64,000 nucleotides of DNA from an uncultured Gammaproteobacteria bacterium (lineage in GTDB: Bacteria > Patescibacteriota > Patescibacteriia > Patescibacteriales > GWC2-42-12). The DNA is taken from positions 3,435 through 67,434 of the forward strand of contig CAYSKV010000005.1 of assembly GCA_964431805.1 (NCBI GenBank). Reading direction: 5' to 3'. Both the position numbers and the translations under genes were made by a program. How positions within the stretch are numbered: position 1 is the first letter of the stretch; every line of letters starts with the position of its first letter. The notes under the pieces are model-generated. The model searched no databases. It was given only the letters and a program-made list of their open reading frames with translations, and had not been told where the DNA came from. Below, in pieces: positions 8,478 to 62,822 of the stretch.

Positions 8478-8500
8478 ATGTGATATCTGAAATAATCTTT

Positions 8501-8833: not shown

Positions 8834-8991
8834 AACTTTCTTACGCTTTTTAGGGATATTCTAAATCCCATAATAATTAAATGTAAGTCGACTTTCTTAT
8901 TTTACTTTTTAATTACGCGAAAAGCATAAGAAAAGAAAAATAACTCTTACAAAAGAAGTATAGCCTATATTAGCTAAAATGTCAAGTCCGA

Positions 8992-9327: not shown

Positions 9328-9328
9328 G

Positions 9329-10603
9329 TTATTGTTTTTTGCCTTCTTTATATAAAAGTTCAAACAATTTATAATATTTCGCTTTTATTAAAGCTTTTAA
9401 ATATCTTGATCTAATTTGCGTTTGCACTAATAATATTTTTTTCGGAGTAAGTTTTATAATCACGCCGAAAAGCCGTCTTAATAATTCACTTGTCCAAGAA
9501 TCATAATTATCAAAAATATAATCTTGCAACCTATTTTCTTCTATGGCGTTAGTCACCACTCTTTCAAAAGAATCTACCGGCGTATAATTAATCTTTTTCT
9601 TTCTCTCCATGGAAATACAATTCTTAGGGCAAAAACGAGAGCAGACTCCGCAGCCAATGCATTTATGTTTATCAATTAAAATTTTACCGTCTTTTTTTAT
9701 AGCGTCTACCGGGCATCTTTTTGCGCAGATTTCGCAAGAGATACATTGCTCCTGATTAATTTGCGCTAAAAAATTGCTTTGAATTCTATTTCTGTCGCCA
9801 AGCTTTCTATAGGCGATTAAAGCCTCGCAGCAACAACCGCAGCAATTACAAATCCAATTAACGCCCTCCTGGATATTGTCGCCGATTTGCACCAAGCCGA
9901 GTTTCCGACATTTATCTAATATTCCCATAGCCTCTGCTTTAGATATTTTTTTAGCGATTTTATGTTTAGATAAACTTTCGGCCGAACCGTTAAAAGTTAA
10001 ACAAACTTCCTGGGGCATATCGCAAGCCTTGCCGACATGCTCCATTTTATGCCGGCAATAGCAAGTGCCGACCGTAATGCAACTCGCCGAGTCTATTATA
10101 TGCGAGGCTTTTTCATAATCTAAAATAATTGATTTGTCTTTAACTTTATCTTCATGGACGAACGTTCTGTCGGCCGGAATACGCATGCCAAAAATCCTTT
10201 TAACAAAAGCCTCTTCCTGATTTATGTATTTATAAAATAACTCTGACAATATTTTACGATCAAATTTTCCATCAGTTCTCATTAAAGAAAATTCAAAAAA
10301 ACCGGCCATGGTTGGCGCGAGAATAAAAACTCTTCTTTTATTATTTTCTAAATCTAATAGAATACCTTTATCGGCTAAACCGTTTAATATTTTTTCGGTT
10401 TCCATTAAATCCTTTTTAAATCTTTTAGCCGCTTCTTTAATTGTAAAAAAACGAATTGGTAATTTTGCGACCAGCTCAGCCTCTTTTTCCGTAAATAAAA
10501 TTTCTAAAATTTTATATAAAGTTTCTGATTCCGGCGCGCCTTGAACATGCCGATCTAACCTTGCTTGTAAATTTTTATATGATTTTGATGTAATATGACC
10601 CAT
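9329..10603 (-). CDS. Cys-rich Fe-S protein: N-terminal winged-helix-like region, central CxC/CCxCCC cluster region, C-terminal 2x[4Fe-4S] ferredoxin domain
   Basis: 424 aa. CISCEICAKRCPVDAI and CIGCGVCSRFCPKNCI are classical ferredoxin motifs. Also CYCRHK..C, and NWICNCCGCCCEAL. Confidence 0.7.
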   Translation of the reverse strand: MGHITSKSYKNLQARLDRHVQGAPESETLYKILEILFTEKEAELVAKLPIRFFTIKEAAKRFKKDLMETEKILNGLADKGILLDLENNKRRVFILAPTMAGFFEFSLMRTDGKFDRKILSELFYKYINQEEAFVKRIFGMRIPADRTFVHEDKVKDKSIILDYEKASHIIDSASCITVGTCYCRHKMEHVGKACDMPQEVCLTFNGSAESLSKHKIAKKISKAEAMGILDKCRKLGLVQIGDNIQEGVNWICNCCGCCCEALIAYRKLGDRNRIQSNFLAQINQEQCISCEICAKRCPVDAIKKDGKILIDKHKCIGCGVCSRFCPKNCISMERKKKINYTPVDSFERVVTNAIEENRLQDYIFDNYDSWTSELLRRLFGVIIKLTPKKILLVQTQIRSRYLKALIKAKYYKLFELLYKEGKKQ

Positions 10604-10620
10604 GAAATTTATCTAATTAT

Positions 10621-11091
10621 TTATTTATTTTTTCTAGTCGGCAAAGGCGCATTAACCATTTCTTCTAAAGTTTGTCTAGAAACTTTATCTAAACCGATGC
10701 CGAACCAATTATACCATTTCCAATGCCAAATCGCCGGCTGATTATTTATTTCCATATCTAAAGTAATCGGATTAATTTTACCTGAATATAAATTGCCATA
10801 AGCATAAACCGAGCCCCTTATCATTTGTTCGTCTAGCGAAAGCCTTATTTTTTTCGTATTTAACTCATTGCCAAAAAAACGATAGCAAAATTCCCCAAAA
10901 TTTTTATTTTGGTTAAATTCTTGATTATATTCTTTTTCTTGCAAAACATAAGCGTGACTTCTTAATTTTTGAGATAAAATAAACCCATAATCAGGGTTTG
11001 TTTTATAGTTAAAAACAACTGTTACGATTAGAAGTATAAATAAAATAAAAAGCGCTAGAAAAAAAATTAATAAAAATTTTTTAATACTCAT
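10621..11091 (-). CDS. Membrane-anchored hypothetical protein
   Basis: 156 aa. Single N-terminal TM (FLLIFFLALFILFILLIV). No recognisable motif. Confidence 0.5.
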   Translation of the reverse strand: MSIKKFLLIFFLALFILFILLIVTVVFNYKTNPDYGFILSQKLRSHAYVLQEKEYNQEFNQNKNFGEFCYRFFGNELNTKKIRLSLDEQMIRGSVYAYGNLYSGKINPITLDMEINNQPAIWHWKWYNWFGIGLDKVSRQTLEEMVNAPLPTRKNK

Positions 11092-11102
11092 AAAATTATT
11101 AA

Positions 11103-11387
11103 TTATCTAAATATAACTTTCCAGTTTTTATTAAATAAAATGCCTTCTTTTTTTAATAAATTTATTTTATTTTTCCCCTTTAAGCCATTATAGCCGCCGA
11201 CCGATCCATCGGATTTAACCACGCGATGGCAGGGAATTTTTTTATTTTGGTTGGCGGACATAATAGCGCCGACAGCACGTGACGCGCGAGTATTGCCAGC
11301 CAAAGCCGCAACCTTAGAATAAGTTAAAACTTTACCGGACGGAATTAAAGAAACTATATCAAGCACAGATTTTTTAAACGATTTCAT
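11103..11387 (-). CDS. MGMT-family (methylated-DNA-protein-cysteine methyltransferase) DNA-binding domain protein, stand-alone C-terminal domain
   Basis: 94 aa. The active-site-type motif IPCHRVV followed by GSVGGY. Confidence 0.8.
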   Translation of the reverse strand: MKSFKKSVLDIVSLIPSGKVLTYSKVAALAGNTRASRAVGAIMSANQNKKIPCHRVVKSDGSVGGYNGLKGKNKINLLKKEGILFNKNWKVIFR

Positions 11388-11399
11388 AAAAAATAAATG

Positions 11400-11486
11400 C
11401 GGAGAGGGCGAGATTTGAACTCGCGAAGGGCGTTAACCCTTGCCGCTTTTCGAGAGCGGTACCTTCAACCACTCAGTCACCTCTCC
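11400..11486 (-). tRNA. tRNA-Ser (anticodon CGA), class II long variable arm, discriminator G
   Basis: Reverse complement GGAGAGG..CCGCT-CTCGAAA-AGCGG..long arm..GCGAG-TTCAAAT-CTCGC-CCTCTCC-G folds as a cloverleaf by hand. Confidence 0.9.
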
Positions 11487-11501
11487 AATTTTTCAGCTAT
11501 T

Positions 11502-11846
11502 TTACTTTAACAGCATTAACTCTCCGATGGCAAGTAGTAGCCAAACAAACAAACTGGCCGTGGTGTAAAATAAAAGTTTTAAGGCTTGTTTCTTTTTGCC
11601 ATCTAAATAATACAAGATCGGTCGGCCTAAAACTAGCGAACTAGTAATCAGGGCGGATAAAATGAAAATCATGAGCATAGTCATGCCGGCTAACATTTCA
11701 TTGGTTGGTCCAATAAATTTACCGGCGCTATTCATAAACCAGACTACTAACGCCACATAAAGAAAAACTCCGACCGAATGAAGAATTCCCAATAAAACTA
11801 AATCCTTTTCTTCGTTGTTATTTTTGTTAGAAAAAATTTTCATCAT
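11502..11846 (-). CDS. Small membrane protein (3-4 TM), unknown function
   Basis: Trimmed to the internal ATG (MMKIFSNK...) to avoid overlap with the upstream gene. Hydrophobic segments. Confidence 0.5.
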   Translation of the reverse strand: MMKIFSNKNNNEEKDLVLLGILHSVGVFLYVALVVWFMNSAGKFIGPTNEMLAGMTMLMIFILSALITSSLVLGRPILYYLDGKKKQALKLLFYTTASLFVWLLLAIGELMLLK

Positions 11847-11853
11847 ATATTTA

Positions 11854-12183
11854 TTATTCGGCGCTTTGTAAAAAAATTTTTTTAGCAAAACCGCCGCGTT
11901 TAATTTTTCTTTCTTGTTTTAATTTATTAATTTCTTTTATATTTAAATTATAATAATTAATAATAGCATCAATCACTTCATAAATATCCCCGATTTCTTT
12001 TTGCATTTCTAGCTTATCACCTTTAATTTGAATTAATTCCTCTGACTCTTCTTTTATTTTTTTCAATAACTCAACAATAAATTCTTCATCATCTAAAATT
12101 CTAATCGTCGGTTCGCTGTTATCAGCCTTCATAATTTCCGGAATATTATCCCGCACTAATTTATTATATATTGTTTTTGCCAT
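11854..12183 (-). CDS. MazG-like nucleoside triphosphate pyrophosphohydrolase (small all-alpha NTP-PPase)
   Basis: 109 aa. YNKLVRDNIPEI start and EExxE..D acidic helix pattern typical of the small MazG-like family. Confidence 0.6.
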   Translation of the reverse strand: MAKTIYNKLVRDNIPEIMKADNSEPTIRILDDEEFIVELLKKIKEESEELIQIKGDKLEMQKEIGDIYEVIDAIINYYNLNIKEINKLKQERKIKRGGFAKKIFLQSAE

Positions 12184-13561
12184 AATTTTTTTCTAAATTT
12201 ATCATACTTATCATAGCAAGGAATAACCAAAACATAACGGACAAATCATTTTTAAAATATGGCACATCAACTATACCATGCACAATAATAGCAACCATAG
12301 CGCAAATCAGGCCGATATTTATATATTTATATTTTGCCGACGCCTGCCGGTAATTTTTAATCCCTGTCCAGAAATACTTTAAAATAATCCAAACAAAAAG
12401 CATCATGCCGGCTAAACCTAATTCAGACCAAAAATTTAAAATTATATTATGCGGATACAAATAAATTTCTAGAGGCTGCCACATTTGTTTTCTATAGTCA
12501 GCGCTATTGCGTAAATTCCTTAGCCAATTTGGGTCGTCATTTTTTATAAAAAATCCTTCGGCGTGATAAGACGCGACCGCGTTTTTAAAATTAGCTAAAC
12601 CGGCGCCAGTAATTAAACGACCGTCTTTTAACATCTCCCAGCTCTCTTCCCAGCCAACCATTCTTATCTGTCCAGAAAAAGTTTTAAAAGTTGCTGTATC
12701 GTAAACTAATTTTCTGACAGGTTGGTATGCAATTACGCCAATCATTATAAGTAATAAAGCGATGGCTACCATCCATCTAACTTTTTTATTTACCATTAAA
12801 CCGAAAACTATCAACCCGGCCACTGCCCCAAGCAAAGCGCCCTTTGATTTAGAAAAATAAATAGACAAAGTAGCAAATATAATTGTTAAACCAATAAAAA
12901 ATATTTTTATTTTTTCATTTCGCGCATAAGCAATGGCAGAAAAAAACCAGCCAACCATAATTAATATAATTGGCCCTAAATATAACCCAACCGCATTCGG
13001 GTAACCGAAAAAAGAAACCACCCGTCGCGTCTCCGCGGCCGCCCAAGCAGGATTATTTATAAAATTACCGGTAATTTTTTGATAAATCGCTAAAAGCGAT
13101 ACGGCTAAAGCGCTTATAGCTAACGACCATAAAATTTTATTTCTGCCATCTTCGCCTTTCATTATATTTAATACTACTATAAAAAACATCAACGGCTCAA
13201 AAAAATACGCCTTAAAAATACCAAGCGAACTAAAACTAAAGCCAGAAACTCCAGCGGCCACAAAAGCGACTAACAATAATAAAACAATTTCCCAATCAAA
13301 TGGATATCTTATTTTTATTTTTTTATTTTCTTTTTTAAAATTCTCTAAAAAATTATTTTTAACTCGACTAAAATTTTTAATTAACCAAATTAAAAAAACA
13401 ACCCAAATCATTACTTCAAGCAATGTCGCCGGCAAACCAAAAATATTAAATCTAATTAAATAAGCCGGTAAGGCAGCAATTAAAAACATAACCGCCCAAT
13501 CAAGGCGGAAAAAAGCAAAAATAGAAAATAAAACAATAAAAATTATAATTAAATAAATCAT
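12164..13561 (-). CDS. O-antigen ligase/Wzy-like polytopic membrane protein
   Basis: 465 aa with more than 10 TM. The loop with YPHNIILNFWSELGLAGMMLF resembles the Wzy_C/O-antigen ligase motif. Confidence 0.6.
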   Translation of the reverse strand: MIYLIIIFIVLFSIFAFFRLDWAVMFLIAALPAYLIRFNIFGLPATLLEVMIWVVFLIWLIKNFSRVKNNFLENFKKENKKIKIRYPFDWEIVLLLLVAFVAAGVSGFSFSSLGIFKAYFFEPLMFFIVVLNIMKGEDGRNKILWSLAISALAVSLLAIYQKITGNFINNPAWAAAETRRVVSFFGYPNAVGLYLGPIILIMVGWFFSAIAYARNEKIKIFFIGLTIIFATLSIYFSKSKGALLGAVAGLIVFGLMVNKKVRWMVAIALLLIMIGVIAYQPVRKLVYDTATFKTFSGQIRMVGWEESWEMLKDGRLITGAGLANFKNAVASYHAEGFFIKNDDPNWLRNLRNSADYRKQMWQPLEIYLYPHNIILNFWSELGLAGMMLFVWIILKYFWTGIKNYRQASAKYKYINIGLICAMVAIIVHGIVDVPYFKNDLSVMFWLFLAMISMINLEKNYGKNNI

Positions 13562-13567
13562 TTTATT

Positions 13568-14533
13568 TTAAACAATAAACAAATATAAACCCAAACAAAC
13601 CATGACTGTGCCAATTAATTTCTGAAGTAGCACGCCGCCGCCTAATTGCTCATTTAACATTTTCGGAAATTTATTGGAAATTAATAAAATTATGACAAAC
13701 AAAAATAAATATTGCACGCCCTGTAAAGCGTTAACCATAGCAACATTGCCCAAACTAATCGCCCAATTAATCATAATAAACGCGGCAGCGGCTAAAAGTC
13801 TAATAGTTAAAAAATAAAACATATTTTTAGGAGTTTTAGCTCCTTTTTGTTGTTCAAAAATTAAACGCCGCCAATCAGGCACAAACAGCATCAAAAGCAC
13901 GCCAACAAAAGATCCTAAGCGCGACCAAACAAAACTGCCAACAAACGGCTGATACATATAAATGTACTTCATTAAAATATAATAAACAGCGAAAAAAACC
14001 GCGGCCGTGACTGAATTAATTAAAATACGACTAGTCGGCTGAGCGCCGGCCGGAACGTTACCGACAATATCGCCAACAACTTCTCTAAATCTAGCCACAA
14101 CCCTTTGATATGAATAAACTTTTGTATGTTTAATTGAAATTAAAACACCGCCGCAAATTAAAATAAAAAAAGCTAAAAGTTGTTGCCCGGATAAAGTCTC
14201 GCCTAAAAAGACAAAAGACAAAATAAAACTAAATACCGGCACTAAGGCGCCGACAATCGGCACCACGCGCGAAGCTTCGCTTTGATGCAAAGCCTTATAC
14301 CAGAATACTAAAGTAATTAAAAATAAAAAACCAGCTAATAGATCAAGGGTCATTTCCTGTAAATTAGGCATCCAAGGCCAGAAGAACAATAAGCCTACAT
14401 TAAAAACACTCCAAATACCAACATAAAAAGCATAGGCTATGGAAGAATGAATCTTTTTAGATAACAAAAATTTGTCCGCCACATAAACGCCGGCGTTAAT
14501 AAAATAGGCTCCGATAGTGATAAAAATCCACAT
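13568..14533 (-). CDS. Polytopic membrane protein, DMT/EamA-like
   Basis: 321 aa, about 10 TM, with an internal two-fold hydrophobic pattern. Confidence 0.45.
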   Translation of the reverse strand: MWIFITIGAYFINAGVYVADKFLLSKKIHSSIAYAFYVGIWSVFNVGLLFFWPWMPNLQEMTLDLLAGFLFLITLVFWYKALHQSEASRVVPIVGALVPVFSFILSFVFLGETLSGQQLLAFFILICGGVLISIKHTKVYSYQRVVARFREVVGDIVGNVPAGAQPTSRILINSVTAAVFFAVYYILMKYIYMYQPFVGSFVWSRLGSFVGVLLMLFVPDWRRLIFEQQKGAKTPKNMFYFLTIRLLAAAAFIMINWAISLGNVAMVNALQGVQYLFLFVIILLISNKFPKMLNEQLGGGVLLQKLIGTVMVCLGLYLFIV

Positions 14534-14739
14534 AAATTAGTCATTAAATTATATTTATATTTTAGCATTTTTTATTTATGATTGCGAGCCTGCCTAGCCG
14601 CCATAAAAAATTAAACTCCGTCGCGCACTTCGGAATATTTTACCCTTGATTTTTTTTCTAATCTATAGTAATCTCTTTTGAAAGGGGGGTAAAAATAAAT
14701 CGCAAACTAAAAAATAAATATTGATTAGAGGAGGAACTA

Positions 14740-15297
14740 ATGTATAAAGGAAAAATTAGTTGGACGGATGTAATTAATAAGGTTATCGTGCATGCCAATT
14801 TAAATTTTATCAAAAGCGAAGATTTTATTCGGCTATACTCAATAAAAAGATACATAATAAACGACAGATTGCTTCGCTTTCTTAAAAATCATGAATTTGA
14901 AGAAGAAATTTGTCTTGCACGAGGAAAAGTTCTGGTTGACAAAAAATTTCGCGAAGAATCAGGTGGACAATTGCCGCTTAGCAACTGCTCTTGGCTATTA
15001 CTGCCAACTGGTATGAGTTTAAAAAAACAAACTCATATTGATCTGGGTGTTAATTTCAATATTGATGAAAAAGATGCTTGTGCAGTTCTTAACGCGCAGA
15101 TAAACGTACCTCATGACATGCCAAGCGCCGACCTGCCTCATCGCCGGCTATTTGATGTATTATTCGGTTACAACGACGGCTTACCAAAGCCAAAAGGGAA
15201 AATAGTTGAAGAAATCCGGCAATTTGGCCATAGCTTTATTACTTTTGATCAACTCGGAATCAAAGGAGCTAAAGTTTTCATACCGCCGCCAAAATAA
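14740..15297 (+). CDS. Hypothetical protein (orphan), strong SD
   Basis: 185 aa. GAGGAGG 6 nt upstream of the ATG. Followed by the terminator CAGCCAA-cctaagga-TTGGCTG-T8. No motif recognised. Confidence 0.6.
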   Translation: MYKGKISWTDVINKVIVHANLNFIKSEDFIRLYSIKRYIINDRLLRFLKNHEFEEEICLARGKVLVDKKFREESGGQLPLSNCSWLLLPTGMSLKKQTHIDLGVNFNIDEKDACAVLNAQINVPHDMPSADLPHRRLFDVLFGYNDGLPKPKGKIVEEIRQFGHSFITFDQLGIKGAKVFIPPPK

Positions 15298-15403
15298 GTT
15301 GAAATTCTTCATTAAACAACAGCCAACCTAAGGATTGGCTGATTTTTTTTAAAAAAACGACCCAATATTATTGAGGCGTTTTTTATATTAAATTTTAATA
15401 ATT

Positions 15404-16507
15404 TTATAAATCTAATAATACGGCCGCAATCCAAGGGAAAGCTACAGTAACGTCGCTTTGAATTATCTGATAATAACTTTGGGTTGATAATTTATCCCAA
15501 GTTATTTTTTCTTTACCGCCAGCGCCGGAATATGAACCATAAGACATTGGCGATGAACCGATTTCAACAAAACCGGCCCAATCTCTAATTTTGTTATGAA
15601 ATCTTAAATCATGTTTAAGCGAAGGCACAACACAAATTGGGAAATCAGCCGAAATTCCGCCACCTAATTGCAAAAAGGCAATCGGCGCGTTTTTAGATTC
15701 TTTCATATACCAATCATAAAGAAAATGAAAATATTCTAAACCATTTTTCATAACTTTACCATCAATAGTGATATCGCCTTTTTTCTTATGCGCGCCTTTA
15801 TAGGTATAGCTAGAAAAAATATTTCCCATCGTAGAATCTTCAAAACCAGGGATAACAATCGGAATATTTTTTTTGTAAGCTGCATAAGTCCAGCAGTCGG
15901 CCGGATTAGATTGTTTATCTGGTGAAATTAATTTTTTAGAAAATAACCGGCGAAAATATTCATGTGGAAAATAACTTTCACCTTTTTTCTCGGCCTCTTT
16001 CCACATTTTTACTAAATGTGGCTCCATAATGCGCACGCTTTCATCTTCCGGCAAAAAGGTATCGGTAATGCGGCGCAACCCGGCATCGCGTAATTCAGCT
16101 TCCTGCTCCGGAGTTAACTCGGTATAGCGCGGAATATAAGCATAATGCGAGTGCGCAACATAGCGGTAATATGATTCTTCATGATTAGCACCAGTCGCCG
16201 AAATCAAATGTACTTTATTTTTTCTAATTAACTCGGCGAGCATCACCCCGACCTGAAAAGAGCTTAACGCTCCGGCTAAAGTAATAACTAATTTACCGCC
16301 ATTTTTTAAATGATTTTTTAACCATAAAGCCGCTTGCATAGTTGAACCGCCATTACAATGATTTAAAGTCGCCTGGCCAAAAGCCGAAACCGGAGCTTTA
16401 GATTTTTTAACGTAAGCGCTTAATTCACCCATTTTAGATTTATTGCCTTCGGGTATAATTAATTTTTTTAATCCGGGAGAAAGTTTATTAAGAGTAGTTT
16501 TTTTCAT
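15404..16507 (-). CDS. Deoxyhypusine synthase-like (DHS/homospermidine-synthase family) protein
   Basis: Trimmed to the ATG at 16505-16507 (MKKTTLNK). The overall pattern TLAGALSS...HLISATGANHEES...GGGISADFPI resembles the DHS Rossmann family. Confidence 0.65.
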   Translation of the reverse strand: MKKTTLNKLSPGLKKLIIPEGNKSKMGELSAYVKKSKAPVSAFGQATLNHCNGGSTMQAALWLKNHLKNGGKLVITLAGALSSFQVGVMLAELIRKNKVHLISATGANHEESYYRYVAHSHYAYIPRYTELTPEQEAELRDAGLRRITDTFLPEDESVRIMEPHLVKMWKEAEKKGESYFPHEYFRRLFSKKLISPDKQSNPADCWTYAAYKKNIPIVIPGFEDSTMGNIFSSYTYKGAHKKKGDITIDGKVMKNGLEYFHFLYDWYMKESKNAPIAFLQLGGGISADFPICVVPSLKHDLRFHNKIRDWAGFVEIGSSPMSYGSYSGAGGKEKITWDKLSTQSYYQIIQSDVTVAFPWIAAVLLDL

Positions 16508-16579
16508 AATAAAATAATAATTATTTACCACTTTATAATAATACATATCCTGTAAATTTTCAATAGTTTTGTCGTTTGC

Positions 16580-16619
16580 TTGACATTTTTTAAATATACG
16601 ATATACTTAGATAATCTAA
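16580..16619 (+). promoter_or_regulatory. Promoter of the marR-efflux operon with an overlapping palindromic operator candidate
   Basis: TTGACA (16580-16585), 16 nt, TATACT (16602-16607). The palindrome TTAGAtaaTCTAA (16607-16619) overlaps the -10/+1 region. Confidence 0.45.
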
Positions 16620-16642
16620 CTATTTAATAAACTAATAAATAT

Positions 16643-17065
16643 ATGCCAAATGACAAAAGCGAAATAATGAATTTATTATTTGCTACCGTTAAAATCATTA
16701 AAGAAAATTTTAGTAAACAAAAAGTTGACGGAATTTCTTTAGCACAAATAAAAACTCTCGGATTTATTGAAAAGAAAAAAAATCCGACCATGAAAGAAGT
16801 AGCCGACGAATTAGGAATTACTCCCCCATCGGCAACAGTTTTAGTTGATTCATTCGTTCTGCATGGATTAGTTAAAAGAGTTTATAACACCGATGATCGT
16901 CGAACTATAAAATTAGCACTAACAATCAAAGGTAAAAATTATTTAAATGAGCATTTTAAAAATATGGCGCAAAAAATGGAAAATTTATTATCCCATTTAA
17001 ATAAAAATCAAATCAACAACTTTAAAGAAATCTTAAATATATTATTAAAAAATTCTAAAAAGTAA
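16643..17065 (+). CDS. MarR-family transcriptional regulator
   Basis: 140 aa. wHTH pattern LAQIKTLGFI..MKEVADELGITPPSATVLVDSFV..GLVKR..DDRR. Confidence 0.85.
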   Translation: MPNDKSEIMNLLFATVKIIKENFSKQKVDGISLAQIKTLGFIEKKKNPTMKEVADELGITPPSATVLVDSFVLHGLVKRVYNTDDRRTIKLALTIKGKNYLNEHFKNMAQKMENLLSHLNKNQINNFKEILNILLKNSKK

Positions 17066-17076
17066 CTTAATTATTT

Positions 17077-18699
17077 ATGGAATTAAAGAAAAAAATTATT
17101 ATTGCGGTATTCGGCGTAATTTTAATCGGAGGGCTAGTTGTTAGCGCTTATTTTTTGTTTGATAAAAATTCTAAAACAAAATATAATTTCGCGACAGTTA
17201 ATAAAGGCGACATAGCTGAGGAAATTAATTTAAATGGTAACGTTAAGGCGGCCGAAAACGTTCAATTAGCTTTTGAAAAATCCGGAAAAATTGCTCAGGC
17301 TAATTTTAAAGTCGGCGATAAAGTTAAAAATGGCCAATTAATAGCTAGCTTAATATCAGTTGATTTAAACGCACAATTAGCGCAAGCGCAAGCCGCTTAT
17401 GATGCACAAATAGCTATTTTAAAAAATCTCCAGGCTGGCGCACGCGCAGAGGATATACAAATTTCGGCTACAGTTGTAAAAAATGCGCAAAATAGCTTAG
17501 CTGATACAAAAAATAAAGCTGATAATGACTTAAATATACTTTATATAAAATCAAGCGATATACTAAATGATGCTTATGCTAAATCCTTTGATGCTTTAAA
17601 TAATAAAATTGATGGCATCTTTAACCATCCTTTGAGTGACAGCCCTGTTCTTGTACCGATGATAAATAATTCAGCGCTAGAAAATTATTTGGAAAATCAA
17701 CGCCCAATTATTAACCAAGAGTTAATTAAAATGAAAAATGAAATTGATAATTTAAACTCTGACCAAATAAATATTGATGATACTTTAATTAAAACTATCA
17801 CTCATCTTGAAAGTATTAAGAATTTCTTAAATCAATTAAACGATGCCATGAATTCTGTATTAATTTCCTCAACTATGACAACAGCGCAAGTTTCTACTTA
17901 CAAAAATAATATCAGCTCTGCTATTAGCAATCTTAATACTGCTATTTCTACAATTAACAGCCAGCAAAATGCCATTGCTACGCAAAAAATCACTAATCAA
18001 AATTCCATAACTTTAGCAGAAAATAATTTAGCTTTAGCACAAAAACAGTTAGACCTTAAACAAGCTGGCGCTACAGATGAACAAATTGCAGCCCAACAAG
18101 CGGCAGTTAACCAAGCTGCGGCTGCTATGCAAAATATTAGAGCACAATTGAGTAAATCTGCTCTAATTTCACCAATTAACGGCACTATAAGTAAACAAGA
18201 TGCTAAGGTTGGAGAAATAGCCTCCATGAATGTTCCGCTTATTTCGATTATCAGTGATGCTAAATTTCAAATAGAAACTCAAGTAGCAGAAGCTGACATC
18301 GAAAAAATACAAATTGGACAAACAGCTAAAATAACTCTTGACGCTGATAATGGCCAACATATCTTTCAAGCTAAAGTTATTTTAATTGATCCAGCTAAAA
18401 CTGTAACCAATGGTTCAGCAACTTATAAAGTGACTTTAGAATTTATTGATGAAGATCCATTAATTAAAGATGGTTTGACTGCTAATTTAAAAATTGTTAC
18501 TAAACAAAAAACTGATACTTTGCTTATTCCAACCTCTTCAATAATAAAACAATACGATAAAACAATTGTGCTAAAAAATAATGGCTTAGGTAACGTAGAT
18601 CAAGTTTACGTTACAACCGGCATCAACCAAGGCAGTTTAACTGAAATTTTATCTGGATTGAACCAAGGCGATGAGATAGTAACCTTCAATAAAAATTAA
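17077..18699 (+). CDS. HlyD/membrane-fusion-family periplasmic adaptor (long coiled-coil)
   Basis: 540 aa. N-terminal TM, biotinyl/lipoyl-like hairpin (GDKVKNGQLIASL), a long alpha-helical hairpin, and a beta-barrel C-terminus. Confidence 0.75.
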   Translation: MELKKKIIIAVFGVILIGGLVVSAYFLFDKNSKTKYNFATVNKGDIAEEINLNGNVKAAENVQLAFEKSGKIAQANFKVGDKVKNGQLIASLISVDLNAQLAQAQAAYDAQIAILKNLQAGARAEDIQISATVVKNAQNSLADTKNKADNDLNILYIKSSDILNDAYAKSFDALNNKIDGIFNHPLSDSPVLVPMINNSALENYLENQRPIINQELIKMKNEIDNLNSDQINIDDTLIKTITHLESIKNFLNQLNDAMNSVLISSTMTTAQVSTYKNNISSAISNLNTAISTINSQQNAIATQKITNQNSITLAENNLALAQKQLDLKQAGATDEQIAAQQAAVNQAAAAMQNIRAQLSKSALISPINGTISKQDAKVGEIASMNVPLISIISDAKFQIETQVAEADIEKIQIGQTAKITLDADNGQHIFQAKVILIDPAKTVTNGSATYKVTLEFIDEDPLIKDGLTANLKIVTKQKTDTLLIPTSSIIKQYDKTIVLKNNGLGNVDQVYVTTGINQGSLTEILSGLNQGDEIVTFNKN

Positions 18700-18722
18700 A
18701 AAATAAATATTGTAAAAATCTT

Positions 18723-19337
18723 ATGACACAAATAAATAAAAAAACTATTATCATTTTACTTACAATTTTAATAACTTGCGGCATTGCCTGCGGCGGAATA
18801 TACTTTTATATCGCGCAAAAAACTATTTATACAGAATCAGCAGAAATTTCCGCACCCACAATAGCTTTATCAGCAAAAACATCCGGGGCTTTACAAGAAA
18901 TAATGGTTAAACCTGGCGATATGATTAATGAAAATACGGTTGTTGCTCGCGTCGGCGATCAACTTATAAAAACTAAATCAGCCGGTTTAATTATAGCTAC
19001 AGAAACTGACATGGGAAAAATTTTTAACCCCGGAGAAGCGGTTGTGACAATGATTGTACCTGATGAACTGCGCTTAATCGGACATATTGAAGAAGATAAA
19101 GGCTTAAAAGATATAAAAATCGGCCAGACTGTAACTTTTAAAATAGATGCTTTTGATAATAAAAAATATTATGGTGTGGTTGATGAAATAAGCGAAACAG
19201 CTAATACTACTGGCGTAGCTTTCAGTATCTCCGATAAACGAGCAACAAAAAAATTTGATATCAAAGTTAGATTTGATATTAACCAATATAGCGAATTAAA
19301 AAATGGCATGTCTGCCAAACTTTGGATTTCTAAATAG
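18723..19337 (+). CDS. Short HlyD/EmrA-like secretion adaptor
   Basis: 204 aa. TM then VKPGDMINENTVVARV lipoyl-like motif. No coiled-coil insert. Confidence 0.6.
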   Translation: MTQINKKTIIILLTILITCGIACGGIYFYIAQKTIYTESAEISAPTIALSAKTSGALQEIMVKPGDMINENTVVARVGDQLIKTKSAGLIIATETDMGKIFNPGEAVVTMIVPDELRLIGHIEEDKGLKDIKIGQTVTFKIDAFDNKKYYGVVDEISETANTTGVAFSISDKRATKKFDIKVRFDINQYSELKNGMSAKLWISK

Positions 19338-19342
19338 GTCTC

Positions 19343-20845
19343 ATGGAACAAAATAGTCCTCAAAAAACAAAACAACATTCACCCTGGATAATCTTAGCTA
19401 CAGTTATGGTTGGAACTTTACTTATCGGTCTTGATTCTACGGTAGTGAATCTTGGCTTAGCTAAAATGATGAGCGACTTTGGAGTTTCCGTTTCCACAGC
19501 TAGCTGGATTTCTATCGCTTACATAATTTCCAACGCTGTCTTTATACCTGTTTTTGGCAAACTCGGCGATAAAATAGGAAACCGAAAAATTTATCTTTAT
19601 AGCTTTATAGGTTTTATATTTATTTCTATTCTTTGCGGATTAGCCTGGAATATTTCTTCGATGATATTTTTCCGGATTCTCCAGGGTTTAGTGGGAGCGG
19701 CTATTTCTCCCACGGCTATGTCATTGATTGCCAAAAATTTTACTGATCAAAAAACTCGCGCCCAAGCTTTAGGAATTTGGTCAGCTTCTTTCGCTGCCGC
19801 CATGGTAATTGGCCCATTAATCGGCGGGCCCATAATTGATAATTACTCTTGGAGAATGCTATTTTATATCAATCTCCCAGTTGGAATTATCGGAATTTTA
19901 ATGGTGCTTCTCTTTTTACCAAATGACGAAGGCAAAGAAAAGGGCGGCTTTGATTTTTATGGATCCATAACATTAGCCATAGCCCTTTCTAGCCTGGTTT
20001 TAGTATTAGAAAAAGGTCAGGATTGGGGCTGGACTTCAAACACAAGTCTCTTGGCCTATTTAATAACTATAATTTTTGGAATTTGGTTTGTTCAAATCGA
20101 AAAGAAACACCCTTATCCTATGATTGATTTAAAATTCTTTAAAAATCAAACTTTTGTTTCTGCTTTAGCGGTTTCCTTTGTTTCTTTTGGCGGCATGATG
20201 GGAGCTATGTTTCTTATTCCTGTTTTTGCCCAGACATATTTAGGATTTGATGCTACGCAAACAGGATTATTATTTTTGCCAATGTCTCTTACTATGTTTG
20301 TAGCGGCACCGATTGGCGCAAAACTTTCTCAAAAAATTCATGTTAGATATTGTGTTTTTTTAGGCATGTTAACAACGGCGTTTGCCATATCGCTTTTTAC
20401 AAAACTTGACCCCAAAACATCAACTTCAGATTTAATATTGCCCTTAATGACTCTGGCCACAGGAATGGGTATGGCGATGTCTCCTTTAACTAATACTGTC
20501 GCTAGCTCCGTACCTGCCCATGAAGTAGGAATGGCTTCAGCCGTTCTTAGTTTAATAAGAAGTATTGCTGGAGCGATGGGTATAGCTTTATTCGGAACTC
20601 TACTTAATAACGCCATAAAAACAAATGTCTTAGAATTAGGAGCTAACGCCATTATTAATAATTCAACCTATAATTCACTTGTAGCTAGCTTAGTTATTCT
20701 TAGAGCTACAGTATTGGCATACAGAGAAGTATTTTTAGTTTCTTCAATTATAGTAGCGACGGGAGCTTTTATCGGATTAACGCTTAAAGATCGAACAAAA
20801 ATAAAAGATGAAAGTGAAGATATAAAAATTATAGCGGAAGCATAA
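19343..20845 (+). CDS. MFS transporter, DHA2 (EmrB/QacA, 14-TM) family
   Basis: 500 aa. Motif A-like GKLGDKIGNRK, 14 hydrophobic segments. Confidence 0.85.
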   Translation: MEQNSPQKTKQHSPWIILATVMVGTLLIGLDSTVVNLGLAKMMSDFGVSVSTASWISIAYIISNAVFIPVFGKLGDKIGNRKIYLYSFIGFIFISILCGLAWNISSMIFFRILQGLVGAAISPTAMSLIAKNFTDQKTRAQALGIWSASFAAAMVIGPLIGGPIIDNYSWRMLFYINLPVGIIGILMVLLFLPNDEGKEKGGFDFYGSITLAIALSSLVLVLEKGQDWGWTSNTSLLAYLITIIFGIWFVQIEKKHPYPMIDLKFFKNQTFVSALAVSFVSFGGMMGAMFLIPVFAQTYLGFDATQTGLLFLPMSLTMFVAAPIGAKLSQKIHVRYCVFLGMLTTAFAISLFTKLDPKTSTSDLILPLMTLATGMGMAMSPLTNTVASSVPAHEVGMASAVLSLIRSIAGAMGIALFGTLLNNAIKTNVLELGANAIINNSTYNSLVASLVILRATVLAYREVFLVSSIIVATGAFIGLTLKDRTKIKDESEDIKIIAEA

Positions 20846-33059: not shown

Positions 33060-33107
33060 AAAACAGGCTGATATAAATAAAGAAGGCTTTAAAAGCCTTC
33101 TTTTTTG

Positions 33108-33127
33108 TGCGCTGCACAGGATTTGAA
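33108..33127 (-). repeat. Duplicated 3' fragment of tRNA-Lys (acceptor plus T-arm half)
   Basis: TGCGCTGCACAGGATTTGAA matches the tRNA-Lys 3' end TGCGCTGTACAGGATTCGAA (33220-33239) at 18/20 nt. It lies ~110 nt beyond the tRNA 3' end. Confidence 0.6.
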
Positions 33128-43691: not shown

Positions 43692-43737
43692 AAAAAAAGT
43701 GAAAGCGGTAGGGCTCGAAAGTCCTACCGCTTTTTTT
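43692..43737. terminator. Bidirectional intrinsic terminator shared by convergent units
   Basis: GCGGTAGGGC-tcgaaa-GTCCTACCGC with T7 downstream and A7 upstream. Confidence 0.7.
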
Positions 43738-47594: not shown

Positions 47595-47670
47595 CAAACA
47601 TAATATATTTTGTTAAAATAAAAAAGGCGATGCTTATACATCGCCTTTGATTTAATCTTAATTTAAAAAC

Positions 47671-55605: not shown

Positions 55606-55665
55606 TTTTTAAAAATTATATAAAAAAACTCTGGTTTAAAGCCAGAGTTTTTATTTTTATTATCT

Positions 55666-58600
55666 TTATCTTTGAAGACCGCTATAAGCTATACCTCTAA
55701 TTATATTCCAATCTGTAGCATTAACTGGGCTATGTTCATAGATCCATTTGAAAGTTGTGATAGCGGTTTGTTCGCTGATTAGGTTTCTGGGTCTGGGCAT
55801 TAAACCATAGGCCATAACCATAATAGTGTTTTGGTCTAGATTGTTAGACATAACAGGGTTGCGGCCATAGACTCGGGAGAATTCTATTTTAGCCTGTTCC
55901 TCAATATTAGAATTTCTCTCAATTGGCCATCTACCATTGGCTATTTTCAATAAATCAGACCATTCAGCTTCGCTATTAGGCAGTCTAGAGTAGGCTTTGT
56001 AGTAGGAGTTAATGACTGCGGCTCGTTCGCCTGAACCTAATCTCAGGGTTGATTTAGTACCATAGACTATGAAATTATTGATAGTTGATCTCTCAATATC
56101 AGTTATAGTTTTATCTAAATTTAGAATAGTCTGATATTTAATTAATCCTTGTTGTTCTTTGGCTAAATCAGCCTGAATAGCTAGATGAGTTAATAATTGA
56201 TTTTTATCATTAGTAGCTAATATTTGAGCTTCGGTTAGAATCTGTTCTAATAGTTCATCATTGTTATTATTAGCTGAATTATTATTGTTGTTATTATTGT
56301 TTTGATTATTACCTGGGTTGTTGTTTCCTGGATTGCCGTTATTGTTGTTCCCATTATTTCCTGGGTTGTTGTTATTGGGTGGAGGCAAAGGGTTACCACC
56401 AGAAACAATCATAATACTGTCTGAATAAACATCTGTTATATTGCCTAGAGCGTCCTTAAATTTAACATAAACTGTTTTAGTGCCAAAACCGCTGTCTAAC
56501 GTCCAGGTTATGGCCGAGGTATATGTTCGCCAATCGCAATCAGTAAACTCTTGATTATTACAAACCATCATCTGACTAACAGCGCCGGCATCATCAGTGG
56601 CTTGAAAATTTAAAATTACATCATGAGTAATTATTTTTTCTTCTCCGGAGTTAATAGTAATTTGACCGGTTAAAACCGGAAGGCCGAGACGGGTTAAAAA
56701 AGTAACTTCAGTATTATTATAAGAAGTAAAAAATCCGCCAACTAATATTTTATTATCGTTTTGAAAAAAGACGGAATATACTCCGGCATAAAAAAGCCCT
56801 GCTAAACCAGTTCCAGAATTAAATGTTTCATCTAAGCTGCCGTCGGAGTTAAGTCGAACTATATTATTTACTGCAGTGCCATTATAAGAAGTAAAATATC
56901 CGCCAATTAATATTTTACCATCATCCTGAAGTGACATTGTTTGTATGTATGGATAATCGTTTCCCAATCCTGTGCCAGAACTAAATGTTTCATCTAAGCT
57001 GCCATCGGAGTTAAGTCGAACTATGTAGTTTGCCATAACTCCATTATAAGAATTAAAACCTCCACCCACTAATATTTTACCATCATTTTGAAGGGCTATT
57101 GAACATACCGCCGGCCAATCTCCGCCGAAACCGGTACCTTGATTAAAAGTTGTATCCATACTTCCATCAGTATTTAGTCTAACTATATTGTTTACTTCGG
57201 TACCATTATAAATAGTAAAATATCCACCAACCAATATTTTATCGTCATTTTGTATTGTAACAAAATAAACTCTTTCCCAGTCTCCGTTAAAACCCTCCTC
57301 CATATTAAAACTTGCATCTATACTGCCATCAGAATTAAGTCTAGCTATATTATTAGCCAAATTTCCATTATAAGAACTAAAATCTCCACCAACTAATATT
57401 TTCCCGTCACTTTGCAAGGCTATAGTATTTATATAATTATCAAATCCTAATCCGCCAGAATTAAAAGTAGTATCTAAACTACCATCAGAGTTAAGTCTAA
57501 CTATATTATTCGCCGTAGTGCCGTTATAAGAAGTAAACCATCCACCAACTAATATTTTACCATCACTTTGAAGGGCTATAGTATTCACACAATCATCAAA
57601 ACCTAACCCGCCAAAATTAAATGTTTCATCCAAACTACCATCAACATTGAGTCGAGCTATATAATTTACCGCAGTATCATTATAAGAAGTAAAACCTCCA
57701 CCCACTAATATTTTCCCATCGTCTTGAGTAGTTACAATACTAATATAACCATTAAAACCTTTAGCGCCTGGATTAAAGCTTGTATCTAAACTACCATCTG
57801 AGTTAAGTCTTTCCAAATAATCTCCGCCTATTATTATTTTATTATCAGATTGAATAGATATATCTCTAACCCACATCCAAGAATAAATTTTAGAGGGAGA
57901 GGTAAATGTATTATCTAAAGTTCCATTACTATTTAATCGGGCTATTTTTTTTATAGTAGTACCATTATAAGAATCAAAATCTCCTCCTATTAATATTTTA
58001 CCGTCTGATTGAATAGCTACACTAGCAGTCCTAATAGTAAAACCTGTTCCTGCGTTAGCATGAAAGTCCGTATCTAAACTTCCATCTGTATTAATTCTAG
58101 CTATATATCCAATACTTGTTCCTCTGTATGTGTCGATTCTCATGCCAACGATAATTATTTTCCCATCAGATTGTACTGCTATATCTAAAATTTCTGGATA
58201 ATATGAACCCGACAACCCAGTACCGGGGTCAAAAGTTGTATCTAAGGTTCCATCAGCATTTAATCTGGCTATTTCGTTTCTGGTTACTCCGTTAAATGTA
58301 GTAAAAAGTCCCCCAATAACTATTTTATTATCGTCCTGAATAAATATTGATTCTGGACCCCACCAATTAAAACCTGTGCCAATATTAAAACTTGTATCTA
58401 AAGTACCATTTGTATTTAATCTAGCTATTCTGCTTACTGCTGTACCATTATAAGAACTAAATTGCCCGATAACTACTATTTTCCCATCACTTTGTAGGCC
58501 CATTCCCATGACATTACTATTAAACCCAACACCAATATTAAAATCTGTATCTAAACTACCATCAGTATTTAATCTAACTATGTGATTTACTGTTGTGCCA

Positions 58601-59001
58601 TTATAAGAAGTAAAACCTCCTCCAACTAATATTTTACCATCACTTTGGAGGACAATTGTTTCTACTTTATAATCACCATTGTCATTAAAGCCTGTACCGA
58701 TATTAAAATCTGTATCTAAACTACCTTCAGTATTTAATCTGGCTATACAATTAGCCGGTGTGCCATTATAAGAATTAAATTCACCGCCAATTAAAATTTT
58801 TCCATCACCTTGAATAACTGTTGTATTTACTCTATAATCAACTCCTTTAAATTCACCATTTATAAAATCCGAGTCTAGTCGCCCATCAGAATATATATAA
58901 CTTTGAGCTTTGGTTTGGTTGGCGAAGGAGGATAGAAATAATAAGGTTAAAATAAATAAGATTATGCCTTTGGGCATTTTTTTGTTTTTTGTTATTTTCA
59001 T
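55666..59001 (-). CDS. Giant secreted protein: signal peptide, ~13 delta-60-type beta-propeller repeats, Ig-like region, poly-Asn/Gly linker, conserved C-terminal domain
   Basis: Trimmed to the ATG at 58999-59001 (MKITKNKKMPKGIILFILTLLFLSSFA). Repeat unit ARLN.DGSLDT.FN.G.GF......IA.QSDGKILVGG.F.SYNG. Linker PPNNNNPGNNGNNNNGNPGNNNPGNNQNNNNNNNN. The C-terminal ~190 aa are homologous to the end of 4535-7516. Confidence 0.85.
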   Translation of the reverse strand: MKITKNKKMPKGIILFILTLLFLSSFANQTKAQSYIYSDGRLDSDFINGEFKGVDYRVNTTVIQGDGKILIGGEFNSYNGTPANCIARLNTEGSLDTDFNIGTGFNDNGDYKVETIVLQSDGKILVGGGFTSYNGTTVNHIVRLNTDGSLDTDFNIGVGFNSNVMGMGLQSDGKIVVIGQFSSYNGTAVSRIARLNTNGTLDTSFNIGTGFNWWGPESIFIQDDNKIVIGGLFTTFNGVTRNEIARLNADGTLDTTFDPGTGLSGSYYPEILDIAVQSDGKIIIVGMRIDTYRGTSIGYIARINTDGSLDTDFHANAGTGFTIRTASVAIQSDGKILIGGDFDSYNGTTIKKIARLNSNGTLDNTFTSPSKIYSWMWVRDISIQSDNKIIIGGDYLERLNSDGSLDTSFNPGAKGFNGYISIVTTQDDGKILVGGGFTSYNDTAVNYIARLNVDGSLDETFNFGGLGFDDCVNTIALQSDGKILVGGWFTSYNGTTANNIVRLNSDGSLDTTFNSGGLGFDNYINTIALQSDGKILVGGDFSSYNGNLANNIARLNSDGSIDASFNMEEGFNGDWERVYFVTIQNDDKILVGGYFTIYNGTEVNNIVRLNTDGSMDTTFNQGTGFGGDWPAVCSIALQNDGKILVGGGFNSYNGVMANYIVRLNSDGSLDETFSSGTGLGNDYPYIQTMSLQDDGKILIGGYFTSYNGTAVNNIVRLNSDGSLDETFNSGTGLAGLFYAGVYSVFFQNDNKILVGGFFTSYNNTEVTFLTRLGLPVLTGQITINSGEEKIITHDVILNFQATDDAGAVSQMMVCNNQEFTDCDWRTYTSAITWTLDSGFGTKTVYVKFKDALGNITDVYSDSIMIVSGGNPLPPPNNNNPGNNGNNNNGNPGNNNPGNNQNNNNNNNNSANNNNDELLEQILTEAQILATNDKNQLLTHLAIQADLAKEQQGLIKYQTILNLDKTITDIERSTINNFIVYGTKSTLRLGSGERAAVINSYYKAYSRLPNSEAEWSDLLKIANGRWPIERNSNIEEQAKIEFSRVYGRNPVMSNNLDQNTIMVMAYGLMPRPRNLISEQTAITTFKWIYEHSPVNATDWNIIRGIAYSGLQR

Positions 59002-59205
59002 ATTTTTGTTTATTAAAAAAGCAATGGACAAAGAGTTTAAACTGATTAAACTATTATCCATTGCTTTTTTTCTAATATTTTAAACCAATTTATGCTATTT
59101 TTAGCTAAATTGGCGTTATTTTTTATCATGTTTTGTTTTTATTTTTTGATAATATGATTTTGTATTATCTAATATAATTTTAACAAAAATTTTGTATTTT
59201 GTCAA
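59002..59205 (-). promoter_or_regulatory. Promoter (TTGACA 59205-59200, 17 nt, TAAAAT 59182-59177) plus structured leader and terminator-like hairpin (59064-59021, then T6). Copy B of the duplicated cassette.
   Basis: Hand alignment to 4327-4534 gives ~88% identity with 3 small indels. The hairpin GCAATGGATA...TGTCCATTGC keeps pairing through a C-to-U change, so C-G becomes U.G. Confidence 0.6.
59046..59129 (-). CDS. Candidate leader peptide (uORF, 27 aa) MIKNNANLAKNSINWFKILEKKQWIIV
   Basis: Same frame and the same first 21 codons (3 substitutions) as uORF A. A 1-nt indel changes the tail. The stop again lies inside the terminator-like hairpin. Confidence 0.3.
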   Translation of the reverse strand: MIKNNANLAKNSINWFKILEKKQWIIV

Positions 59206-59350
59206 TGTCTAAAAATTTAAAAATCACCTATACTTAGCGGGGTTTTATTTTATTGACTTTGATAAATTCTTTCTGTTATACTTACCCAAAGCACATTTTA
59301 AAATTAGTAAACACAGAAGCAACCAAAACGACAAAAACAAGGAGGGCATT

Positions 59351-62676: not shown

Positions 62677-62729
62677 CTTTTAAAAACTTTTTTAGAAAAA
62701 GTTTTTAATATTTTCAAAAAATATAAGGT

Positions 62730-62786
62730 ATTAATAAAATAATTAATAGCGGGCAAAGCCCTACGGCCATTAATTATTTTATTAAT
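62730..62786. repeat. Perfect 18-bp AT palindrome enclosing a GC mini-hairpin
   Basis: ATTAATAAAATAATTAAT-agcGGGCaaaGCCCtacggcc-ATTAATTATTTTATTAAT, between rpsO and the NYN gene. Confidence 0.6.
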
Positions 62787-62822
62787 TATATAAAACCATT
62801 CTAAGAAGGTTTTAAAAACATT

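Follow-up and report, generated by a model that had tools for sequence, protein, structure and literature searches.

Two genes for large secreted proteins, lying 51 kb apart in a 64,000-nt stretch of DNA from an uncultured Patescibacteria bacterium (contig CAYSKV010000005.1, positions 3,435 to 67,434; the whole stretch is called the window below), are preceded by closely similar leaders. In each leader a strong promoter is followed by a short upstream open reading frame (uORF), which ends within a terminator-like hairpin just before the start codon of the main open reading frame (ORF). The locus thus raises the question of what such a leader does in front of two genes, and where it came from. 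Alignments and covariance models indicate that it derives from the 5' end of another gene, which encodes a small membrane protein in many Patescibacteria. We tentatively propose, with a probability of about 45%, that it now works as a transcription attenuator of the ribosome-occlusion type (as in pyrBI, pyrE and pil1), built by exaptation of that gene's 5' module. A reading made earlier from the DNA letters and a list of ORFs, here called the sequence-only reading, had suggested attenuation-type control, and we return to its claims where our results bear on them.

Structure of the two leaders

Copy A of the leader occupies 4327-4534 on the forward strand and copy B 59205-59002 on the reverse strand. 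Both consist of an extended -10 promoter, three stem-loops (SL1 to SL3), the uORF, a run of six U residues (U6) and a main start codon that lacks a Shine-Dalgarno (SD) sequence. The copy A promoter (4327-4355) is made up of TTGACA at 4327-4332, a 17-nt spacer and the extended -10 element TGCTAAAAT at 4347-4355; in copy B (59177-59205, reverse strand) TTGACA and a 17-nt spacer are followed by TGTTAAAAT. Each agrees with the consensus at 11 of 12 hexamer positions plus the TG and is the best sigma-70 match of the surrounding 20 kb, and that of copy A is the best promoter match within 1-20000. SL1 folds at 4362-4385 in copy A (AGAUAAUA-N8-UAUUAUCU, at the 5' terminus of the predicted transcript) and at 59148-59169 in copy B. 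In copy A it is followed by an A-rich, SD-less (AAAAAC)n tract (4386-4404) that abuts the ATG of the uORF.

The uORF of copy A (4405-4491) has 28 codons plus TAA (4489-4491) and encodes MTKNNVNLAKNSSNWFKILEKSNGQEFI; that of copy B (59046-59129) has 27 codons plus TAA and encodes MIKNNANLAKNSINWFKILEKKQWIIV. SL2 folds within the uORF (4421-4449 in copy A, 59084-59114 in copy B). It is followed by an A tract, A6 at 4463-4468 in copy A, where it pairs with U6 in the predicted fold, and A7 at 59065-59071 in copy B, where GA AAA AAG, read in the frame of the uORF, provides a dnaX-like heptamer; the difference in tract length sets the frame of the uORF tail. Next comes the terminator-like SL3, supported by folding and by a covariance model, at 4469-4515 in copy A (arms GCAAUGGA...UCCAUUGC) and at 59021-59064 in copy B. 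The U6 tracts follow directly (4516-4521 and 59015-59020), and the main ATGs at 4535 and 59001 lie 13 nt past them. The positions that the sequence-only reading had given for the uORFs, hairpins, U6 tracts and SD-less main starts were all confirmed. Its statement that the uORF stops in the hairpin loop holds for copy A; in copy B the stop codon instead forms the last 3 nt of the 5' arm.

SL3 of copy A, including the A and U tracts, has a predicted stability of -28.2 kcal/mol (z -9.1) and that of copy B -25.8 kcal/mol (z -9.8), and for neither was any of 200 shuffled sequences equally stable. Folds of the whole leaders gave z values of -9.2 (copy A) and -8.7 (copy B) against shuffled sequence. 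Between the -10 element and the main ATG the copies share ~85-100% of their nucleotides, against ~40% in either flank, and the 40 nt at 4506-4545, which run across the 3' arm and U6 into the main ORF's first codons, match at 100%. Sequence and covariance-model searches found just these two copies within the window. Only transfer RNAs (tRNAs) reached the Rfam 15 gathering score in the window, so that the leader was not matched, and in E-value mode the leader and the related locus L023 (see below) returned generic hairpin and microRNA noise only.

By exact-protein look-up, the gene behind copy A was found otherwise on one 6.3-kb contig of the Joint Genome Institute (JGI) only, with an identical leader. 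On this contig (Ga0565070_004682) positions 1-210 correspond to window positions 4337-4546, including A6. Its end falls within the leader promoter, as if assembly had broken off at a repeat, and the genome may contain further leader copies. SD-less, A-rich starts were seen for the uORF, both main ORFs and ruvB, and a strong AAGGAGG SD (59340-59350) precedes a radical-SAM gene at 59351; two modes of translation initiation seem to coexist in this genome.

Origin of the leader from a small membrane-protein gene

A pattern scan for the hairpin arms plus U6, with one genome per species, matched, besides chance terminators, about 70 Patescibacteria genomes (Falkowbacteria, Parcubacteria, Shapirobacteria and others), all of which carry a 59-nt version of the hairpin. 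In 63 of the ~70 genomes the hairpin lies inside an ORF, ~75-135 nt from its start. The family N-terminus reads M...[IG]W[KR]xYNxIKKKAMEQEFSWSGLxxSLSIAFFIV and is followed by a transmembrane helix. Most of these ORFs are short (46/63, 65-152 aa) and the other 17 are longer (354-615 aa, several of them cut by a contig end); a SpoIID domain was found in the one longer member that was scanned against Pfam, and the SpoIID-bearing family proteins have ~570 aa. A profile search brought the family to at least 552 protein clusters (90% identity), every one of them named "hypothetical", and family-level DNA was looked at for ~70 of them. The family N-terminus belongs to no Pfam or NCBIfam family, no relatives were found in viral contigs, and for the family-level element there is no Rfam entry and, on limited searching, nothing in the literature.

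Before the hairpin the family sequences vary codon by codon (AAA, CGC and AGA at the K/R position, for example), which shows that the region is coding, and the N-termini are variable. Its promoter, TTGAC[AT]-N17-TGnTAnnnT, was present upstream in 55 of 57 family loci. About half of the loci have a 5'-terminal hairpin of variable sequence, and in essentially all members an (AAAAAC/AAAAAU)n tract abuts the ATG. One family member (L085, reverse complement, ~790-1000) has a 44-aa ORF that stops 6 nt past the U-tract, with no gene for ~550 nt downstream.

The genomic setting of the family was noted in passing. At four loci in three genomes the short form lies between glgA and phoH-smc, in the order glgA, small gene, phoH, smc, with an unannotated gap of ~400-700 nt before phoH (for example L110 10259-10767, L112 2250-2662 and L018 1519-2217). 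In many family 5' untranslated regions (among them L023, L038, L005, L007, L104, L058/L080, L112 and L116) SL1 is separated from the A-rich tract by an inserted GC-rich mini-hairpin (CCGCC..CGC..AAAGC..GGCGG), which resembles a dispersed small palindrome and is not present in the window leaders. Radical-SAM genes stand beside copy B and beside the family gene of L005, but they are not homologous, and synteny was rejected.

The promoter, SL1, A-rich tract, ATG, SL2 and SL3 of the window leaders all align with the family module, SL2 being homologous to a GCCAAU...AUUGGC stem of the family, and the window SL1 is identical in sequence to that of three family loci (L023, L110 and L112). Shared with the family are TTGACA-17-TGnTAnnnT, the A-rich leader, the GCAAUGGA...UCCAUUGC-U(6-7) hairpin and its inner stem. 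A covariance model built from family hairpins only ranked the two window hairpins first in the window (copy A 48.6 bits, E 2.6e-9; copy B 46.2 bits, E 1e-8), and beyond them it found no more diverged leader copies there, only generic terminators with lower scores. Because the module aligns throughout, SL1 is identical and the window hairpins take the top ranks, the leader is a derived copy of the family gene's 5' end and did not evolve as a uORF.

The intact family ORF (W-[KR]-x-Y-N...KKKAMEQEFSWSGL...SIAFFIV plus transmembrane helix) is not present in the window leaders, which are therefore derived fragments and not member genes. Their coding capacity has decayed through a 1-nt insertion, a stop in the ancestral frame (TAT TAG against TAT TAC in the family) and the loss of 11-12 nt, and the interior of the hairpin has been shortened and rewritten, leaving no transmembrane segment. 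SL1, SL2, SL3, the U-tract, the start codon and the A-rich tract have persisted. Homology between leader and family at the protein level was considered and rejected: six-frame hits were weak (E 0.003-0.2), covered the palindromic arms only and were equal on the opposite strand, so that the KKAM...SIAF likeness is a by-product of the nucleotide palindrome.

Selection on the hairpin at the RNA level

Two parts of the family hairpin give unbiased evidence, namely the inner stem and the arms of six to seven loci that were selected through their proteins. The inner stem GAGUUCAG/CUGGACUC, which was not in the search pattern, is 99.4% paired in the family. Double compensatory changes were seen in 4 of its 8 pairs (15 sequences have U-A replaced by C-G, three G-C by A-U and two A-U by G-C), counts that are inflated by relatedness among the sequences, and L046 and L054 write the stem differently. 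None of 500 shuffles reached the observed covariation score, and slid controls were 16-43% paired. Some of the changes couple a non-synonymous substitution on one arm with a synonymous one on the other, such as TTC to CTC with GGA to GGG.

Four protein-selected members, at most 52% identical to the pattern-selected set, have exactly GCAATGGA...TCCATTGCTTTTTTTATTGT, including U7, despite divergent flanking codons. In two to three variants with a Met-to-Val change the 3' arm and U7 are identical, and the 5' arm, GCAGTGGA, differs by that change only. Among 120 proteins Met-to-Val occurred in 14, turning an A-U pair into G-U, and the pair-breaking changes Met-to-Leu, Met-to-Ile and Met-to-Thr occurred in none. 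Since the arms are unchanged where the flanking codons diverge, the synonymous sites of the hairpin are frozen, and this comparison marks it as an RNA-level (or DNA-level) element embedded in coding sequence.

The window copies point the same way. SL3 is their most diverged segment (79% identity, with a 3-nt indel), and its fold is kept at -26 kcal/mol. Of the six substitutions between the copies in the shared uORF codons, three fall on pairs of SL2 with pairing kept (changes at SL2 include G-C to A-U at 4428/4442 and U-G to C-G at 4421/4449) and one more on its bulge; in the family, covariation of SL2 was seen by eye only. Constraint on the leader is indicated by its ~85-100% nucleotide identity, against 43% amino-acid identity in a C-terminal domain that the two downstream proteins share.

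Terminator likeness of SL3

The genome has clearly more terminator-like sites than shuffled sequence would predict, 28 where 16.9 +/- 4.2 are expected and 36 where 17.8 +/- 4.5 are. Gene-end terminators follow both main ORFs (7528-7564 and 55624-55652), and others were seen at 47623-47648, 43701-43734, 62729-62787 and 33072-33110. Like SL3, the gene-end hairpins have a symmetric arrangement of A-tract, stem and U-tract (bidirectional), and they are weaker matches of the family model. Judged by its parts, SL3-U6 fits an intrinsic terminator. The leader promoter is the only recognisable one before the main start, SL3 lies in between, and the 13 nt before the ATG are too short for another, so transcription of both 3-kb genes must pass SL3 plus U6. 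In the family the same hairpin lies inside ORFs that need to be completed, so any termination there would be conditional; the simplest condition is ribosome occupancy. No alternative antiterminator fold was found, and folding without the 3' arm leaves SL2 plus pairing worth a few kcal/mol at most.

The upstream open reading frame

The differences between the two uORFs were as the sequence-only reading had described them. Four of the first 21 codons differ (T2I, V6A, S13I and the synonymous L8L), and a 1-nt indel, A6 (4463-4468) against A7 (59071-59065), alters the tail. Five of the six nucleotide substitutions are non-synonymous, in three codons, and one is synonymous, and the leader is conserved at least as well in its non-coding parts as in the uORF codons. 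The start codon is homologous to that of the family and stands behind the same A-rich, SD-less tract, which makes it a plausible start for a short promoter-proximal ORF. After about codon 7, however, the alignment places the uORF outside the ancestral frame, owing to the 1-nt insertion, and its Trp codon aligns with the Ile-Gly codons of the family, not with the invariant Trp. Because the frame is non-ancestral after that point, the peptide is by this alignment not conserved; the differences between the copies track RNA pairing.

The sequence-only reading would have been strengthened by preservation of the frame and stop in homologous leaders, and here it failed: the family modules have a continuous ORF through the hairpin and no stop there. 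As there are only two leaders of the window type, both from one genome, conservation of the uORF frame and stop can be assessed against these family homologues alone. A pattern scan of metagenome contigs for window-type leaders gave a single match, rejected as chance, in a ClC channel gene.

The downstream genes

Main ORF A (4535-7516, forward strand) encodes a secreted PQQ-like beta-propeller protein (PQQ_2) of 993 aa with a signal peptide, and main ORF B (55666-59001, reverse strand) a secreted protein of 1111 aa with DUF5122 beta-propeller repeats and a poly-Asn/Gly linker. The two propellers are unrelated; only a C-terminal domain of ~190 aa is common to both (43% identity). This domain (6940-7513 and 55669-56240), which follows Asn/Gln/Thr-rich linkers, has the motif GERAxVIxSY...LPxSxAxWxDxxKIANG...MAYGLxP and no Pfam match, and it may serve for anchoring or sorting specifically in this lineage. 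Asn makes up 9.3% and 11.4% of the main proteins, the highest contents in the window (5.5 +/- 2.3%), and, as the sequence-only reading had noted, 5 of the first 14 uORF codons.

In the JGI annotation, protein A starts at an in-frame ATG (4472) inside the 5' arm of SL3, which gives 1014 aa and places a 21-aa extension before the signal peptide. None of 36 orthologues inspected has this extension; they start with the signal peptide or are N-terminally truncated, and no protein matched a profile of the extension (MD.SL..SIAFLINKNMKITKNK). Because the orthologues start directly with signal peptides, we prefer 4535, and the annotated start is probably wrong. Neither a leader nor a hairpin or uORF lies upstream of protein A's three closest orthologues (P0122, P0123 and P0126).

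A proposed model of ribosome-dependent attenuation

In the proposed attenuator, the captured module would have carried with it a strong extended -10 promoter, a 5' stabiliser hairpin, an A-rich SD-less start, the SL2 coding segment and SL3 plus the U-tract. RNA polymerase leaving the leader promoter would reach SL3-U6 ~110 nt past the uORF start. A ribosome loaded on the A-rich leader and following closely would then occupy the 5' arm and apex as the 3' arm emerges, no terminator would form and transcription would continue into the main ORF. With no coupled ribosome, SL3 would fold and a transcript of ~160 nt would be released. SL2 lies 20-45 nt upstream and would be melted by the first translating ribosome, and as a candidate synchronising hairpin it may pause the polymerase until that ribosome arrives. 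Output would thus track the capacity for translation initiation and not a specific metabolite. We infer termination at U6, translation of the uORF, its coupling to transcription and the pausing role of SL2 from the arrangement of the parts.

The geometry of the leaders is that of ribosome occlusion, with the stop in the loop of SL3 (copy A) or on the last 3 nt of its 5' arm (copy B). With the stop codon in the A site, a ribosome would mask SL3 from the 5' arm through the loop to the first bases of the 3' arm. Since the source hairpin always lies in a translated ORF, passage of ribosomes over the 5' arm is an ancestral property. The attenuation suggested by the sequence-only reading therefore stands in part: a real, selected hairpin lies between promoter and start codon, and a ribosome at its apex would occlude it, but there is neither a conserved peptide nor an antiterminator.

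Several points weigh against the model. ATG frames of at least 27 codons arose in 8-11% of dinucleotide shuffles (p ~0.1 for the uORF length), past the A-tract the uORFs of the two copies end in different frames, and both length and stop position of the uORF could be chance. No window-type leader was found beyond the two in this one genome, in metagenome contigs or by an N-terminal peptide search, and the high identity of these two could come from recent gene conversion and not from selection. The search pattern itself dictated the outer arms and U6 of the 60-sequence family alignment. Pairing of the A-tract with the U-tract, as predicted here, may also weaken termination.

Alternative explanations

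SL3, with SL1 and SL2, could also be a non-terminating element, either one of stability, the 5' and internal hairpins shielding the mRNA, or a processing site of the RNase III type, or else the site of a regulatory protein. It would have come along with the module for its effect on the half-life or translation of any mRNA behind it. This would agree with the position of the family hairpin inside fully transcribed ORFs, including those of the ~570-aa SpoIID proteins, where it is no constitutive terminator, and with A-tract/U-tract pairing that lengthens the stem to at least 15 base pairs; SL1 resembles a 5' stabiliser, and freezing of the arms across genomes would suit a sequence-specific protein site as well. 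Yet SL3 has the architecture of the genome's genuine gene-end terminators, with U6-7 directly adjoining a G-C closing pair, no candidate binding protein was found, and the kept start codon and the open frame to the apex would be left unexplained, so that we regard this explanation as unlikely. Still less probable, in our view, is that the unit from promoter to U6 is a gene of its own, for a dual-function small RNA of ~160 nt and/or a peptide of 27-28 aa, with the main genes transcribed by incidental read-through. It has the full anatomy of such a gene (strong promoter, structured body and terminator), and at L085 the module stands alone. The peptide, however, is not conserved, its frame being non-ancestral and its tails different; the 100% identical 40 nt span the junction into the main ORF, so that the junction belongs to the module; and the main ORFs have no promoter of their own. 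We give equally little weight to the leader as a non-functional relic, in which a strong promoter fragment of the small gene was captured or gene-converted and the uORF and hairpin have not yet decayed. That coding capacity has clearly been lost, that there are only two copies in one genome, that orthologues of protein A elsewhere have ordinary upstream regions and that the uORF length is not significant would all be expected of a relic. The decay is selective, though: the frames and the transmembrane segment are gone, and all three stems survive, SL2 and SL3 showing compensatory changes. The leader is also far better conserved than the shared protein domain, and a purposeless hairpin of -26 to -28 kcal/mol with U6 would come at a cost to the 3-kb genes behind it.

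Other explanations turn on the A-tract and on the codons of the uORF. The most far-reaching makes the hairpin an ancient, Patescibacteria-wide, ORF-embedded translation-gated terminator that was captured as a cassette, with the A-tract (A6 and A7, with A5 or A8 being in frame) as a contingency switch for large surface propellers; stopping at the apex or reading through into the main ORF would then give stochastic ON/OFF or isoform variation in an episymbiotic bacterium of the candidate phyla radiation (CPR). We consider it very unlikely. More doubtful still is restoration of the frame by slippage on A6/A7 (phase variation in the DNA, transcriptional slippage or a -1/+1 ribosomal shift), which would fuse the uORF, KKAMD...SIAFLINKN and the main ORF into an N-terminally extended protein and, where SL3 is read through completely, abolish termination. 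In both copies the ATG in the arm (4472 and 59061) shares the frame of the main ORF, which the 3-nt indel preserves; directly before the hairpin of copy B, the dnaX-type heptamer A AAA AAG can be read in the frame of the uORF; tract length differs between the copies; and there is a precedent of the pil1 type (PMC3894217). But a +1 shift would be required in copy A and a -1 shift in copy B, the family does not conserve the heptamer (AGAAAGAAA and AGGAAAAAA are found there as well), no more than 0-1 nt separate it from the stem, and A6 is unchanged in the independent JGI contig. The extension would carry no transmembrane segment and would stand ahead of a normal signal peptide, and an open frame of ~21 codons plus a frame-preserving indel is no more than modestly improbable by chance (p ~0.05). 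A programmed -1 frameshift site of the dnaX type was itself rejected, as the heptamer occurs in copy B only, copy A needs +1 and the spacer is 0-1 nt against 5-9 nt. Least credible is attenuation through sensing of tRNA-Asn, which the sequence-only reading had raised as a speculation. When charged tRNA-Asn is scarce, ribosomes would stall at the five Asn codons (codons 4-14, present in both copies) and not reach SL3, and the Asn-rich proteins would not be made. The Asn-rich downstream proteins, the richest in the window, are its sole support apart from the codons, and these follow from the A-rich sequence, are scattered without a tandem run, and stand in a frame that is non-ancestral after codon 7, so that they were not inherited as regulatory codons; there is no antiterminator fold, and the family N-termini are variable. 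We regard the idea as unsupported and very improbable.

Comparison with known systems

If ribosome-dependent attenuation is true, one conserved hairpin at the start of the ORF of a ubiquitous small gene is a translation-sensing terminator, and the module can be copied before other genes as a cassette of promoter plus attenuator. A coding N-terminus would have decayed into a regulatory uORF with its RNA structure kept, which would be a route by which leader-peptide attenuators are born. To our knowledge, Patescibacteria (CPR), with tiny genomes and few transcription factors, are a group in which almost nothing is known on gene regulation. Whatever the mechanism, a family of at least 552 clusters, ~70 of them examined at the DNA level, is a target for metatranscriptomics and for curation in the manner of Rfam.

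The closest parallels to the model are pyrBI and pyrE of Escherichia coli, where a leader ORF overlaps or ends at an intrinsic terminator and the following ribosome blocks the hairpin without need of an antiterminator; these leaders sense UTP through polymerase pausing in U-rich tracts, and pyrimidine genes lie downstream. In the window, too, the leader ORF ends at a terminator-like hairpin without an antiterminator, but there is no link to nucleotide metabolism, the leader is derived from an unrelated membrane-protein N-terminus, and the host is a Patescibacterium. The likeness to the trp, his and leu attenuators lies in the short leader ORF before a terminator, and SL2 could serve as a 1:2 pause hairpin; unlike them, the window leader has no mutually exclusive antiterminator, no tandem regulatory codons and no biosynthetic operon. 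The vsp and vlp paralogues of Mycoplasma have a near-identical promoter, 5' untranslated region and signal-peptide start in front of bodies that differ. The window genes likewise share a 5' cassette, but without a recombinase, inversion sites or a gene cluster, and the cassette comes from the N-terminus of another gene.

In the pil1 locus of Streptococcus gallolyticus the length of a leader ORF, set by GCAGA repeats, gates a premature terminator, and ON/OFF variants have been demonstrated (PMC3894217). As there, surface-protein genes stand in the window behind a leader ORF and a terminator-like stem-loop, and a slippage-prone repeat sets the frame; in contrast, the candidate tract of the window is only A6 or A7, both observed frames stop at the apex, and the JGI contig gave no heterogeneity in length. 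In E. coli, a terminator that coincides with a stop codon or closely follows it is silenced by the ribosome, and one within ~100 bp of the ORF start can still act, as the first ribosome has not yet caught up (PMC4824070). The window leaders match this rule in having their stop within the hairpin, ~85-115 nt from the start, although the rule comes from a synthetic E. coli system and not from a natural element. Two things are new beside these systems: a family-level hairpin element that is undescribed in Pfam, NCBIfam and Rfam, and a coding N-terminus with an embedded terminator-like hairpin that has been reused as a leader, its ORF collapsed to a uORF ending at the apex.

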